Source: Ostreococcus lucimarinus
Lineage: Eukaryota
Assembly (NCBI GenBank): GCA_000092065.1
Contig: CP000590.1
DNA length: 64,000 nt
Direction: 5' to 3' (one strand)
Both the position numbers and the translations under genes were made by a program. Shown piece by piece: positions 136 to 61,175 of the stretch. Position 1 is the stretch's first letter. Every line of letters starts with the position of its first letter. Under the pieces are notes generated by a model, which saw nothing but the letters and a program-made list of their open reading frames with translations, had not been told where the DNA came from and searched no databases.

Positions 136-185
136 CGCGTCGCGCAGTCGCGCGGCTGTCGCGACGGATTCGAATCGCGCGCGCG

Positions 186-400
186 CCGACCGACCGCGAT
201 TCTGACTGTTCGCGCATACGACACGCGACCGACCGACCGCGATTCTGACTGTTTGCGCATACGACACGCGACCGACCGACCGCGAGTCTGACTGTGTGCG
301 CATACGACACGCGACCGACCGACCGCGATTCTGACTGCGTGCGCATACGACACGCGACCGACCGACCGCGATTCTAACTGTTTGCGCATACGCACGACGC
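186..400. repeat. Tandem repeat, 5 copies of a ~43-nt unit (ccgaccgaccgcgattctgactgtttgcgcatacgacacgcga) in the divergent intergenic region between the minus-strand gene starting at 135 and the trpG-like gene at 501
   Basis: Five near-identical head-to-tail units are read directly in the sequence, with single-base variants between copies. Confidence 0.85.
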
Positions 401-2836: not shown

Positions 2837-3506
2837 CGCGCTCTCCGTGTTCACCGGCGCGTTGGCGTCGATCGCGCTCGGCGCCTTCACCCCTCGACCG
2901 CGTTCGCTCTTCAGCACCGGTCCGCGTTCGGACGCCCATCCGTCGAGCGCCGTCGTCTTCGTCCGCGGGCTCGCGCGCACGAAAATCGGTCGGTGCGGCC
3001 ACGTCGTCGCCGGCGGCAGCGCGCATCGTCCCCGCGTCGCCGCCGTCGTCCTCCCGAACGATTCGCGCCCGACGGCGTCGCTCGCCGTCTCGTCTCGCCG
3101 CGCGCGCGCGTCGCCGCGCGCGCTCCAAAACGCCGCCGCGTTCCCGCCGCCGCTTCGCGTCGCCGCCGCCGCTGCGACGTCGCGCCACCGCCAACCGCGC
3201 GCGCGCATCCGCCCCAGCGCGTCGCTCGGGACGAGCAGCGACCAGAACACGCCCGCGCACGGCGCGAGGCACACCGCGACGTCGACGCGAAGCGCCGACG
3301 CGAGCGCGAGCGCGAGCACGAAGAGAATCAGCGTCCCGCACGCGACGTGCGACGTCCACGCGAGCGCGACGAGCGCGTCGCCGAGCGTGCGCGTCGCGGC
3401 GCGCGCCATCGCGTCGCGAGCGTCGCGCGGCGTCGCGCGCGCGCGCGTGTGCGGGCGAGACGGTTCGGTTCGCGCGCCCATCGGTCGGTCGGGACATCGC
3501 GACGCG

Positions 3507-4597
3507 ATGCGCGCGCGCGCCGCTCGAGCGCGCGTCGGCGTCGCGCGCGCGACGCCGCGCGATCGTCGCGCGCGACCGCGACCGCGCGCGGACGCCGAGG
3601 CGCGCTCGAACGGCGCGCGCGCGGCGAATGAACTTCCAACCGTCTTGCGAGAGGTTGACGACGCGGCGCGCGCGCTCGACGCGGCGCGCGCGGCGATCGC
3701 CGTCGCGATGCGCGCGCGCGGACGGAACGCCGTCGCGGAACGCAAGCGCGATTCGACGATCGCGACGGTGGCGGACGTCGCCGCGCAGGTGGCGTGCGCG
3801 AGGGCGCTGCGCGGCGGCGAGGGCGAAGATTTCGTGGGCGAGGAGACGACGCGAGCGCTGGACGGTGACGCCGACGTCGTGACGGCGATTTTGACGGCGT
3901 GTGGGGCGGGAGTGGACGAAACGGAGGCGAGGGAACGGCTGAGGGAGACGTCGGGGGGGATCGGGCGGTACTGGGTGTGCGATCCTCTGGACGGCACGAA
4001 GGCGTTCGCGGCGAGCGACGACGCGGATAAACAATACGTGCTCGGATTGGCGCTCATGAGCGACGTCGGGACGCCGGAGATCGCGGTGATGATAGCGCCG
4101 AAGTGGCCGGGCGGAGGATTGGAGGTGGTCGCCGCGCGCGGTCGCGGGTGTTTCGCTCGCTCGCGCGACGACGAGACGAGCGCGTTTCGGCGCGTTTCGT
4201 GCGCGCAGCCGAAAGCGTTGTCGGACGCGAACGTCGTCATTTCGGCGCACGAATCGTTCGAGTCTTTGCCGCTCGGCCGGGCGGGCGTGTCGCCGGCGCG
4301 GGTGCGCCGATTGTGTTGCGGGAGTCTGTGCAAATACGTCGACGTCGTCGCTGGCTCGTCGTCGATTTTTATTCAACACGCAAAGGAGGGCGGCGACGAC
4401 GCGTGCGTCAATTCTTGGGATCACGCCGCGGGTGTTTTATGCGCCGAAGAGGCTGGTTGTGTCGTGACGGATTTACACGGACGCTCGCTCGGGTTTCTCG
4501 GTCGCGACGGCGACAGACGGCGTTTCTCGCCGGGCGGCGGCGGCGTGATTTGTGCGGCGAAAAGCGTTCACGAGAACGTCGTGCGAGCATTTCGAGA

Positions 4598-4619
<22 letters not shown>
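3507..4619 (+). CDS. 3'(2'),5'-bisphosphate nucleotidase / inositol monophosphatase family (SAL1/HAL2-like)
   Basis: ATG at 3507, in frame with track ORF 2766..4619. Motifs TVADVAAQ, WVCDPLDGTKAF and the WDxAAG region match the Li-sensitive phosphatase family. Confidence 0.7.
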
Positions 4620-58571: not shown

Positions 58572-60018
58572 TCACGCGAATTCGTCGAGCGCGGCGCGGA
58601 CGCGGGCGTGGAGACGGCCGGCGGTGGGACGCGCGGAAGGCGTCGGGGACATGGCGTCGAGGACGAACGCGTGGACGCGCGCGGGGACGTCGACGCGCGG
58701 GACGACGCCGCGGCGAAGCGACTGGTACTCGGCGCCGTGCGAGGGGAGGGAGGCGCCCAAGGCGAGCTCGTAGATGGATGCGCCCAATGAAAATATGTCG
58801 GCGCGGTCGAGGGCGGAAAAGTCGTCGTTCAAAACCTCGGAGGAGAGGTATCGAGCGTCGCCCTCGTCGACGGCGGCGTCGCGGCGGTCGCCGTTGAGGA
58901 GCGCGACGCGGCCCCAGTCGCCGAGCTTGTATCCTTGGTTGTGAATGAAGATGTTATCGGGCTTGATGTCCATGTGCGCCAAACCTCGGGCGTGCGCGTA
59001 GGATAAGGCGGCGGAGACGTCGAGGAGGCATCGCATCAACGCAGCCTCGCTCGCGCGTTCGCCGCTCTGCGAATCCACCATCTTGGACGCGCTCCCGTCG
59101 CACAGTTCCATTTGAATGTACAGATGGTCGTTCTCCCACCACGCGCTTTGGTAGCGCACGATCTCCGCGCACTGCGTCAAACTCGCCAAAACTTGCACCT
59201 CGCGCAGCGCCTCCGCTCTCTCGCGCTCGGTCTGGAGCTTTTTATCCGTGCGCTTGAGCGCGTACCGACACCCGTCCAAGCGCCCGATGACTTTGTGCAC
59301 TTTGGAAAATCCGCCGCGCGCGATGCACCCTAGGTCGACGAAATCCGCGCGAAACCTCGACATGGTGGCCAACTGCGCCGCGCTCGTACAATTCGCCCTC
59401 CGCGCGTGCGCGCTCGTCTCCGGAGGCTGCTCATCATCCGGCAAGAAGGCGTTTCTCGCGCACGGCGGCGACGTCGCCGCGCGCGGCAACCCCGACCTCG
59501 ACCCCACCCCTCGCGTCGGTTCCCGATTCCTCGGCACGCGGAACCCGCCCCCGAACTCCCCTTGCGACTGCGACGGCTGCGTCGCGTCCAGCGGCTGACT
59601 CGCAAACTCCTGCGTCCCCTGCGACGCGCCTAAATCCAACCCGAACCGCGGCCGTTTATTCCTCGCCGGCGACAGCGCGCACGGCGACCGCGCGCCTCGA
59701 AAGTTTTCCTTATCCTCGTACCCCCCGTACGCGTCGAACTGCGCGTCCGCGGGCGTTATAAAATCCGGTCCTCCGAATTCCTGACTCTCTCCGTTCCCCT
59801 GCGACCGCGCCGTCCCTCGCGTCGCGCCTCGTCGTTCGTCCCGCTGCGATTGACTGCACCCCGCGAAATCAAACGATTTATTCGTCCCATCCTCGTCCGC
59901 GCTCGCGCTCGCGCGCGTCCCGCCCGACCGCGCGTCTCGCGCGTCGTCGTCGTCCCGCGCGCGTCTCTCCCCGTCCATCGCGTCGTCGTCGTCGTCCATC
60001 GCGTCGTCGTCGCGTCGT

Positions 60019-60049
<31 letters not shown>

Positions 60050-60254
60050 TCGCGCGCGCGTTCGGCGTCGCGACGTTCAGCGTGCGCAGCGCTCTGGACA
60101 GCCCGCTGGACGGCGTGCACAGAACGCTTCGCGATTTCAGTCGGAGCATGACGACCGCGTCGGACGTCGCGCGCGCGTCGCGGTGTCGCGCGCCGCGGCG
60201 AACGGGGCGGTCGTTTGAATTCGATGCCGAATGTCGTGGTATCGTACGTCTCAC
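58572..60254 (-). CDS. Wee1-like protein kinase
   Basis: Kinase subdomains include HMDIKPDNIFI, LGDWG and Wee1-like GDARYLSSEVL. A long acidic/Ser-rich N-terminus is present; the true ATG may be downstream of 60254. Confidence 0.7.
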
Positions 60255-60300
60255 TGTTTACGCATACACGCGGTCGGTCGGACGCGGTCGGTCGGACGCG
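60249..60300. promoter_or_regulatory. Motif tctcactgtttacgcatacacg followed by 2x cggtcggtcggacg, related to the 43-nt tandem-repeat unit at 186-400; it sits in the Wee1/MAPR divergent promoter region
   Basis: The TCTGACTGTTTGCGCATACGACACG-like core is in the same orientation, with the ccgaccgacc module inverted. Confidence 0.4.
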
Positions 60301-60353
60301 CGGCGCCAGACGCGCGACGCCAGACGGCGCCGGCGGCCGCGACGGCGCGCGCG

Positions 60354-61175
60354 ATGGCGCGAGACGACGCGCGCGCGCGACTCGCGCGCGTCGCGCTCGC
60401 CGTCGTCGTCGCGGTCGTCGCGGTCGTCGCGCGTCGGCGCGACGCGAACGCGAACGCGAACGCGAACGCGCGCGTCGCGATGGTCGCGCCCGACGCGCTC
60501 GCGCGCAGGGTCGATCGCGCGCGGCGAAGCGACGCGTCGACGTGGACGCGCGCGCGCGCGGCGCTGCGACGACGGCCGCGCGTGTGGCTGGCGGTGCTGG
60601 GCGAGTGCTTCGACGTGTCGGCGGGGCGACGGTTTTACGCGGGCGACGGCGACTACGCGACGTGCTTCGCGGGACGCGACGCGAGCCGCGCGTTCGCGAC
60701 GGGAGACTTCAGCGAGAGTGGGTGCGTGAGCGACGTCTCGGGGCTGACGGACGGGGAGTTGGCGGCGATCCGAGGGTGGAGGGATTTCATGCGCGACAAG
60801 TATCGCGCCGCGGGCGTCTTGGCGAACGGCGAGTTTTACGACGCCGAGACGGGGGCGGCGACGGCGTTGACGCTCGAGATTCGAGCGCGGTTGGAGCGGT
60901 ACGACGCGGGTGCGGCGGCGCGCGAACAGCGCGCGCGCATGTTCCCGGATTGCGATTCCACGTCGGACGGCGACTTCGTCGACGTGCGCTGCCGCGAGGA
61001 CGACTCGGGACCGCGATACCCGCGCAACGAAACCACGACGGACGCCGAAGGGCGCGCGAGCAGTCGATGCGCGTGCTACGGCGATTTGGGTGTCTCCGAC
61101 GCGCGCCGCGCGTATCCCGGTTGCGACTTGACGTCGACGCGATGTCGCGCGCCGCTCGGCGCCGGCGTCGGTTGA
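60354..61175 (+). CDS. Cytochrome b5-like heme/steroid-binding domain protein (MAPR / neuferricin-like) with a signal anchor
   Basis: ATG at 60354. Motif LAVLGECFDVSAGRRFYAGDGDYATCFAGRDASRAFATGDF matches the MAPR family. Confidence 0.55.
   Translation: MARDDARARLARVALAVVVAVVAVVARRRDANANANANARVAMVAPDALARRVDRARRSDASTWTRARAALRRRPRVWLAVLGECFDVSAGRRFYAGDGDYATCFAGRDASRAFATGDFSESGCVSDVSGLTDGELAAIRGWRDFMRDKYRAAGVLANGEFYDAETGAATALTLEIRARLERYDAGAAAREQRARMFPDCDSTSDGDFVDVRCREDDSGPRYPRNETTTDAEGRASSRCACYGDLGVSDARRAYPGCDLTSTRCRAPLGAGVG

Follow-up and report, generated by a model that had tools for sequence, protein, structure and literature searches.

In the alga Ostreococcus lucimarinus CCE9901, the promoter shared by trpG and a divergently transcribed neighbour carries an array of 43-bp tandem units, which we analysed within a 64,000-nt stretch of contig CP000590.1 (hereafter the window; coordinates refer to it unless a contig is named). 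The array is a copy-number-variable minisatellite in a divergent promoter: its units are tandem, their number varies in nature, and it lies between two gene starts, all features of a promoter variable number tandem repeat (VNTR). Each unit contains a core of about 20 nt, and this core is found again at many independent promoters, where chance would give practically none. It is tempting to view the core as a protein-binding promoter element which, together with an adjacent CCGACC module, might have been locally amplified into a variable-number repeat. This is the reading we favour, with moderate confidence. Both Ostreococcus and Micromonas serve as picoeukaryote models and have extremely compact genomes; to our knowledge, almost nothing is known about the organization of their ~200-bp bidirectional promoters. 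The searchable literature yielded no description of the motif, motif queries (both orientations, both variants) matching unrelated primers only, and nothing relevant was found there on Ostreococcus promoter motifs, cis-regulation or tandem repeats.

The trpG array and its natural variation

Tandem Repeats Finder places the array at 182-396, with a period of 43, 5.0 copies, 94% matches and a score of 374, which bears out the five 43-bp tandem units claimed in the first-pass annotation of this DNA. All other repeats reported by the program in the window are low-complexity CG-rich noise, so that this is the single clean array. When the program output is combined with reading of the sequence, the array extends over 182-400 on the plus strand, its units starting at 186, 229, 272, 315 and 358; the fifth unit departs from the others 3' of the core (...CATACGCACGACGCGG). 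An invariant segment of every unit is the decamer CCGACCGACC, present on the plus strand at 186-195, 229-238, 272-281, 315-324 and 358-367. The core copies, also on the plus strand, are TCTGACTGTTCGCGCATAC at 201-219 (one mismatch to the search pattern), TCTGACTGTTTGCGCATAC at 244-262 (identical to the family consensus), TCTGACTGTGTGCGCATAC at 287-305, TCTGACTGCGTGCGCATAC at 330-348 and TCTAACTGTTTGCGCATAC at 373-391. With up to three mismatches allowed, the 19-nt core TCTSACTGTTTRCGCATAC is found in the window only at 201, 244, 287, 330, 373 and 60249, always on the plus strand; 100 dinucleotide shuffles of the window contain no match, compared with these six real ones. The decamer occurs eight times in the window (0.37 expected): five times in the array, at 60272 and 60286 on the minus strand, and at 3483, likewise on the minus strand.

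The array sits in a 365-bp divergent gap (136-500). To its left, on the minus strand, a gene encoding a 1594-aa product with a zf-4CXXC_R1 domain occupies 1-135 of the window (ATG at 133-135), as follows from gene calls on the identical contigs L001-L010. To its right, trpG, coding for the anthranilate synthase beta chain (XP_001419995.1, exact protein match), runs on the plus strand from 501 to 1265. Exact matches to this protein and to XP_001420189.1 identify the DNA as that of O. lucimarinus CCE9901. The gene calls thus agree with the divergent starts at 135 and 501, the latter of a trpG-like gene, between which the annotation had placed the array. Around the metagenomic sites described below, coding regions were called with a frame-specific-GC gene caller, which recovers the database calls when applied to the window.

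The annotation had also proposed comparing the number of units across strains. We made this comparison on contigs from marine metagenomes, using 19 gap-free contigs (the reference array of the window included) in which TrpG is identical or at least 99% identical, and found alleles with two to five units segregating. Two units are present in eight contigs, three in two, four in seven and five in two, so that the commonest natural allele is also the shortest. There are 10 distinct haplotypes, whereas both flanks, the left one and the ~110 bp leading from the array to the trpG ATG, are essentially invariant. The contigs are assembled from short reads, and in two further scaffolds N-gaps coincide with the array, as is to be expected of a repeat that is hard to assemble from short reads. 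However, the alleles differ in the internal order of their units, which argues that the variation is real and is not a product of assembly collapse. Among the 14 distinct 43-nt units, positions 1-11 are constant, and the variable positions (12, 15, 19-21, 24-27 and 29-32) all fall within or just before the core; in one variant, for example, CTCTACCGG replaces GATTCTG.

Recurrence of the core at divergent promoters

The sixth match to the core in the window lies 60 kb from the array, in the divergent promoter between a Wee1-like protein kinase gene (58572-60149, minus strand, Pkinase domain) and a MAPR / cytochrome-b5-like gene (60354-61175, plus strand; the called start is 60354 rather than 60355). 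Here a single copy, TCTCACTGTTTACGCATAC with A as the next purine, is located at 60249-60268 on the plus strand. It is followed by two CCGACCGACC modules on the minus strand (60272-60281 and 60286-60295), inverted relative to those of the trpG array, just as the annotation had described this second locus. The intergenic region is 204 bp long (60150-60353). Across 10 environmental contigs the core at this locus is nearly invariant, with one substitution in L014.

The only decamer in the window that accompanies neither locus is at 3483-3492 on the minus strand, a lone module which the annotation did not list. It falls in the divergent gap between Duc1 and an inositol-phosphatase gene, which shows that the CCGACC module by itself is also promoter-associated; the module alone is indeed enriched in the divergent gaps of the window. 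The gap in question measures only 25 bp (3482-3506), almost half of it occupied by the CGGTCGGTCGG module, which makes it an extreme example of promoter sharing.

A scan of metagenome contigs with the exact-match pattern TCTNACTGTTTRCGCAYAC gave at least 120 matches. Among the matches listed, to which all counts of sites given below refer, we distinguished 47 clusters by their flanks. Of these, 36 are in GC- and CpG-rich contigs of Mamiellophyceae type, and the other 11 are unrelated, mostly AT-rich and chance-like; the trpG and Wee1-MAPR loci themselves (loci 1 and 2) contribute only a handful of matches. Contigs were assigned to taxa by composition, synteny and intron type, the composition being calibrated on verified Ostreococcus loci, which have 0.138-0.193 CpG per bp as against 0.093-0.129 in a second class of contigs. 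When 424 kb of prasinophyte DNA were simulated with a Markov model, no core with up to two mismatches appeared. The positions left free by the pattern are not random. Position 4 is G in 19, C in 14 and A in 3 of the 36 Mamiellophyceae-type clusters and never T, and the base 3' of the core is a purine in 31 clusters and a pyrimidine in five, whereas T is the commonest base at both positions in the 11 chance clusters. All remaining flanking positions are unconserved. The element therefore comprises about 20 nt, TCT[G/C/a]ACTGTTT[G/A]CGCA[T/C]AC[G/A]. Its density is about one per 30-50 kb of unselected sequence and, with at least 36 independent sites, it ranks among the best-conserved short sequences of Mamiellophyceae-type DNA. 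Two other interpretations of the motif were tried and rejected. As position 4 may be G, C or A, the TGAC of the core cannot be read as a GCN4/AP-1 site (TGACTCA). A prasinovirus or other viral link was likewise dismissed, since a scan of viral contigs gave four matches, from one AT-rich phage coding family and at chance level.

The Ostreococcus-type sites are strongly biased in their location. Of the 17 that could be classified, 15 are non-coding on a background that is 79% coding (p = 6e-9), and 11 of 15 lie in divergent gaps, where 30% would be expected (p = 6e-4); none is in a convergent gap. They are found 10-190 bp from the flanking ATGs, in either orientation, near the middle of short intergenic regions. 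In the window and the contigs covered, this is not the abundant generic satellite devoid of positional bias which the annotation had named as the finding that would overturn its view. The flanking genes encode such diverse products as a YidC/Alb3 insertase, bL32, bL28, a RecQ-type helicase, an ABCG transporter, a mitochondrial carrier, a UMP-kinase type protein, RCC1 and NUDIX proteins. Because of this functional heterogeneity we rejected the idea of a pathway-specific regulon.

The association between the core and the CCGACC module also extends beyond the window. Within 80 nt of the core, CCGACC/GGTCGG is enriched about 7-fold (4.76 vs 0.67 per kb; 21 independent sites), and the hexamers occur on either side and on either strand. 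The arrangement at locus 1 (core, 1-3 nt, ACCGACCGCG) is repeated at several loci, and that at locus 2 (core, a few nt, GGTCGGTCG) at others, including cluster C34. The latter was considered as an ortholog of locus 2 and rejected, as tblastn with MAPR, Wee1, GcvT and the exonuclease gave no match; the locus is an independent one that shares the locus-2 architecture. Tandem cores are present at other loci as well, spaced 27-28, 42-44 or 82 bp apart. In three unrelated sequence contexts the spacing is 42-44 bp, about four helical turns, although the sample is small. Neither the window nor ~700 kb of related DNA yielded a further array of the 43-bp unit.

Some of these properties might be expected if the sites acted through DNA structure or chromosome maintenance, that is, if they were Z-DNA, cruciforms, weak G-quadruplexes or i-motifs, or origin-type sites of replication placed in nucleosome-free promoters. 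The natural unit variants drift toward a perfect alternating pyrimidine-purine palindrome of 12 nt (GTGTGCGCACAC in some units), and one site per 30-50 kb resembles the spacing of origins in small eukaryotic genomes. However, CG-rich alternating tracts without the core motif abound in the genome, a structural model leaves the conserved non-alternating part TCTNACTGTTT unexplained, and single-strand folding is unremarkable. We therefore consider such a role very improbable. As for hairpins and cruciforms in particular, they were rejected because DNA folding of the array, of single units and of locus 2 is no different from that of shuffled sequences.

The core in introner-like introns

Contigs of the lower-CpG class have variants of the core every 0.5-2 kb, within short stereotyped introns. 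We infer that these contigs are Micromonas-like and use this label below; the conserved ATP/ADP-transporter open reading frame of an intron-bearing contig is only 52-55% identical to named Ostreococcus and Bathycoccus proteins. The intronic variants include GACTGATTGCCCATAC, GACTGTTTGCCCATAC and the exact core GACTGTTTACGCATAC. These introns follow a layout of the form AG/GTAAGTATTTCCCAATCACCAC..CC-core-..GACTGACActttTTTT..CAG/, in which the 5' splice site is followed in order by TTTCCCAATCACCAC.., the core, the branch site GACTGACA, a T-run and CAG. A branch point and YAG are located downstream of the core in 29 of 63 distinct Micromonas-like copies but in only two of 42 Ostreococcus-type ones, and both sets of splice signals are present in 13 of the former and in none of the latter. 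At both loci of the window, donor, branch point and acceptor are absent. These results also qualify the view of the annotation that a cis element shared between unrelated promoters is unusual: a specific element is indeed common to the two promoters, but it is not private to them, as it occurs at no fewer than 36 sites and in the Micromonas-like introns.

Short introns of this kind are known from Micromonas as introner elements. In polar Micromonas, E2-IEt1 was reported to have a 50-nt motif reaching from 2-7 nt past the GY donor to the poly-U stretch (PMC4540971), and the layout seen here agrees with this published description, the comparison being to the description rather than to a consensus sequence. 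With the Micromonas introner elements in general (Worden 2009; Verhelst 2013, PMC3879977; Simmons 2015, PMC4540971; van Baren 2016, PMC4815162) there is thus a connection through the same 16-19-nt core, identical or near-identical, in the Micromonas-like introns. The Ostreococcus copies, on the other hand, are without splice sites, are located in promoters and occur in both orientations, so that the core alone is common to the two. Nor do they show the similarity over the whole element that characterizes introners, since Ostreococcus-type sites share only ~20 nt and the CCGACC modules.

This connection raises the question of whether the core and the CCGACC module are a remnant, or a terminal module, of a short non-autonomous mobile element related to Micromonas introners. 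Such an element would have inserted into nucleosome-free DNA, meaning promoters in the intron-poor Ostreococcus and, in Micromonas, gene bodies, where the insert is turned into an intron. On this view the array at trpG would be an internal or subterminal repeat expanded after insertion, and the promoter location would reflect where insertion is preferred and tolerated rather than a function. Apart from the stereotyped introns and their fit to E2-IEt1, this scenario is supported by the ~32-nt composite of the core and ACCGACCGCG, found at a near-fixed offset at several independent loci, by the lineage-specific presence of the element and its variable or flipped orientation at orthologous promoters, and by the partial introner copies that have been reported near coding sequences and in intergenic DNA of Micromonas (PMC3879977; PMC4815162). 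Against it, introner elements have been reported to be absent from Ostreococcus (PMC3879977), and neither locus of the window has splice signals. Inspection of the two loci revealed no terminal inverted repeats or target-site duplications, the ends there being undefined by an empty-site allele. Above all, a decaying transposon should lose similarity uniformly, whereas what we see is a 20-nt island of identity amid unrelated flanks, and the Micromonas assignment of the intron-bearing contigs is itself indirect. Taken together, this origin seems unlikely, though it deserves more weight than any of the other alternatives to a promoter element.

The intronic copies also suggest that the element might work at the level of RNA, as a mimic of the branch point, as a target of a splicing factor or small RNA, or within a structured non-coding RNA. 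At its 5' end the core reads TCT[G/A]AC, which does resemble the branch-point consensus NCTGAC/GACTGACG of Micromonas and Ostreococcus introns (PMC3879977), and within the Micromonas-like introns the orientation of the core is fixed with respect to transcription. The introner-like introns, however, have a separate genuine branch site, GACTGACA, 3' of the core, and C at position 4, found at 14 of 36 sites, breaks the CTRAC branch consensus. Ostreococcus-type sites lack splice sites and occur in both orientations relative to the neighbouring genes, and folding energies are the same as those of shuffled sequences (z = -1.3, 0.0, 0.0 and +1.6). A known RNA was rejected as Rfam gave no matches at gathering thresholds in the window and five related loci. 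An action through RNA is accordingly a highly doubtful explanation.

Two side observations may be added. Several Micromonas-like lineages (L049, L050, L056, L110, L120, L132, L097 and L146 in cluster C10; L047 and L062 in C08; and L101) have a conserved non-coding block, GGTGATT[A/G]GCACC[G/A]-TCTAACTGTTTACGCATAC-GTAAATGCGTAAT, in which the TTACGCAT of the core is followed by an inverted copy, ATGCGTAA, with a G-to-A change in one lineage (ATGTGTAA). Rfam searches with representatives of this block (L056, L047 and L101) gave no match. In addition, at the double-core site C04 the contigs L061 and L063 have a G+C content of 0.44-0.46, compared with 0.59-0.61 in L042 and L135. A low-GC 'outlier chromosome' has been described in Mamiellophyceae, and the C04 site may be at the edge of such a region.

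A candidate promoter element and its parallels

Our favoured reading can be put in the form of a mechanism. The unit would be a composite promoter module consisting of the ~20-nt core and an adjacent (CCGA)n module in either orientation, and the core would be bound by a sequence-specific protein, either dimeric or multi-domain. That the protein might be a dimer is suggested by the centre of the core, which is partly dyad-symmetric (GTnTGCGCAnAC; TT[G/A]CGCA[T/C]). Such a protein would act as a general promoter organizer or nucleosome excluder rather than as a regulator of a pathway. At trpG, one module would have been amplified in the O. lucimarinus lineage by tandem duplication, through replication slippage or unequal exchange, and the 43-bp repeat would set two to five sites about four helical turns apart.

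A number of observations speak against this mechanism. To begin with, within the array it is the CCGACCGACCG module and the ACGACACGCGA spacer that are invariant across the 14 distinct units, while the core is hypervariable; a variable core with a fixed spacer is the reverse of a constrained site with a neutral spacer. The core also leaves no phylogenetic footprint, as its position is not conserved between Ostreococcus lineages. Upstream of trpG, both the 43-bp unit and the core are absent in O. tauri and in the metagenomic lineages L165, L166 and L167/168. The core of the Wee1-MAPR promoter is replaced in O. tauri by a related box, and in L159 a partial core, ACTGTTTGCCCGGAC, is left at the corresponding position, on the other strand. 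An identical core inside repeated introns is not something that a pure promoter-element model predicts. Since the sites outside the window were found with an exact pattern, the conservation of their fixed positions is in part built in by the search, and 20 conserved bases are long for an ordinary transcription-factor site. A dosage-type role for the tandem copies, as put forward in the annotation, is likewise conjectural: the two-unit allele is the commonest, four other Ostreococcus lineages have no array, and the core is its most variable part. What the sequences show directly is that the element exists, how it is distributed and biased in position, that it is polymorphic and that it is specific to lineages; protein binding, the chromatin state including nucleosome exclusion, and an effect of copy number on trpG or the zf-4CXXC_R1 gene are what we infer from them.

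The comparison of orthologous promoters is informative in other respects. The gene order zf-4CXXC_R1, trpG, rhodanese, Duc1 is retained in O. tauri, L165, L166 and L167/168, and as the array is absent from these four syntenic lineages, it must have been gained in the lineage of O. lucimarinus. To the left of the array, a block GGCTGTCGCG...GATTCGAATC (154-176, plus strand) is kept in the orthologous promoters of O. tauri and L165, according to a comparison by eye, and marks the ancestral portion of the promoter. The Wee1-MAPR gap of O. tauri has no exact core; it holds a tandem repeat with a unit of ~50 bp, present two or three times according to strain, and every unit contains the box TCTGTGC[G/T]GTG[T/C]ATACATGGG. 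The trpG promoter of O. tauri contains CATGGGNCATGACTCGTG twice, and ACATGGG has no other occurrence in the ~17 kb of O. tauri DNA examined. The skeleton of the O. tauri box, TCT..CTGT..GCATACA, resembles the O. lucimarinus core. Orthologous promoters thus keep a related, fast-evolving and tandem-prone element, though its sequence and position differ.

The same promoters hold further repeats and boxes. A separate 17-bp repeat, TTCAAAAATCGTTGG, is present in the O. tauri Wee1-MAPR region in three copies in L158 (reverse complement, ~2322-2727), six in L161 and five in L162; it is a second copy-number-variable promoter repeat at an orthologous locus of O. tauri-type contigs. Upstream of trpG, L166 has (GATC)n runs and a duplicated GAAAGGCACGTCTTTCGATCGATC unit (3456-3640), a lineage-specific colonization by repeats. 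GCN4/AP-1-type boxes also occur upstream of trpG: TGAGTCA in L165 (~3860-3920), TGACTCA in L166 (~3660-3680) and ATGACTCG, twice, in O. tauri (L021-L023, ~2820-2870). The O. lucimarinus trpG promoter has only TGACTG, inside the repeat core. These boxes could hint at amino-acid control of trpG by a basic leucine zipper (bZIP) type of factor. Two telomere-type GGGTTTAGGGTTTAG repeats, resembling the telo-box, are found in the O. tauri promoter as well (L021-L023, ~2885-2900) and are absent from that of O. lucimarinus.

Given such turnover, one may ask whether the array has any function at all, or is just a neutral minisatellite with no role in transcription, to which the copy at 60249 is incidental. 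Both the number and the sequence of its units vary freely, with the shortest allele being the commonest; four sister lineages dispense with the array; and orthologous promoters accommodate other simple repeats, such as the 17-bp repeat of O. tauri and the (GATC)n runs of L166. A functionless dispersed repeat or satellite would not, however, be expected to show the strong bias toward divergent promoters, the 20 bases that are identical across genera amid unrelated flanks, or the non-random bases at the positions that the pattern leaves free, and there is no second array of the 43-bp unit in the window or the ~700 kb of related DNA. In our opinion, the absence of any function is improbable.

A role as a promoter element and descent from a mobile element need not be mutually exclusive. 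The two can be reconciled if introners carry the site of a host factor or of a transposase. Introners have been placed by published work in nucleosome-free linker DNA. It is conceivable, if rather speculative, that the core is recognized by a DNA-binding protein conserved in Mamiellophyceae (an organizer of promoters or nucleosome-free regions, or a domesticated or active transposase), which would mark bidirectional promoters in Ostreococcus and whose site would be carried by, or have seeded, a family of introners in Micromonas. If so, the spread of introners would be tied to a host promoter factor, and it would become clear why the promoter sequence is tandem-prone, turns over fast and is independent of orientation. 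A real introner link would also provide a testable tie between promoter architecture and the origin and spread of introners, an open question in intron evolution. A 20-nt element common to dozens of promoters across genera would offer a handle for DNA-affinity purification of the factor and for synthetic promoters in the transformable O. tauri, and trpG alleles with two to five sites make up a natural dosage series for the divergent gene pair.

Elsewhere in the window and its natural counterparts, two features are worth recording. One is a structural polymorphism of O. lucimarinus-type contigs, an extra gene with an ABC_tran domain (L002, 13007-17005; also L024, L025 and L030; compare window ~3507-4619). 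Its product has 584 aa in L002 and L024, 705 aa in L025 and 697 aa in L030. In L002 the gene is flanked by two copies of the inositol-phosphatase gene, one truncated (187 aa) and one full (371 aa); in the window and the other contigs the phosphatase gene is single-copy. The other feature is the segment 46001-52000, with a G+C content of 0.51-0.53 as against 0.55-0.71 elsewhere in the window.

Among known systems, the trpG array may be compared with promoter VNTRs, such as human MNS16A at hTERT (PMC5438627) and other promoter repeats that modify expression (PMC4857002, PMC3516485). The likeness lies in head-to-tail units of tens of bp, the location in a promoter, a candidate binding site within the unit and the variable number of copies. 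What differs is that the site repeated here belongs to a genome-wide motif family that crosses genera, and that the setting of the array is a bidirectional promoter of ~365 bp in an algal genome that is very compact.

The dispersed core has parallels of another kind. Reb1, Abf1 and Rap1 in nucleosome-free regions of yeast, and ZNF143/SBS in bidirectional promoters of vertebrates, recognize long motifs at functionally unrelated genes. The core resembles the sites of these general regulatory factors in being a long specific motif, central in short or bidirectional promoters, used in either orientation and sometimes multicopy. No sequence similarity assigns it to any of them.

At the level of individual bases, two plausible relatives may be named. 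The C/EBP-PAR type of bZIP proteins binds the palindromic site RTT[G/A]CG[C/T]AAY. The resemblance is a lead only: the core centre TT[G/A]CGCA[T/C] is near-palindromic with the same G/A and C/T degeneracy, and two inverted copies, TTACGCAT..ATGCGTAA, are seen at one Micromonas-like locus. However, conservation of the core extends ~10 nt further 5' (TCTNACTG), beyond what a simple bZIP site would account for. The second relative concerns the adjacent module only. The DRE/CRT core of plants, RCCGAC, is bound by AP2/ERF proteins, and by this consensus each 43-bp unit has two or three overlapping RCCGAC cores, which like DRE/CRT occur in either orientation and are enriched in promoters. Unlike DRE/CRT, the CCGACC module behaves as a tetranucleotide microsatellite, (CCGA)n.

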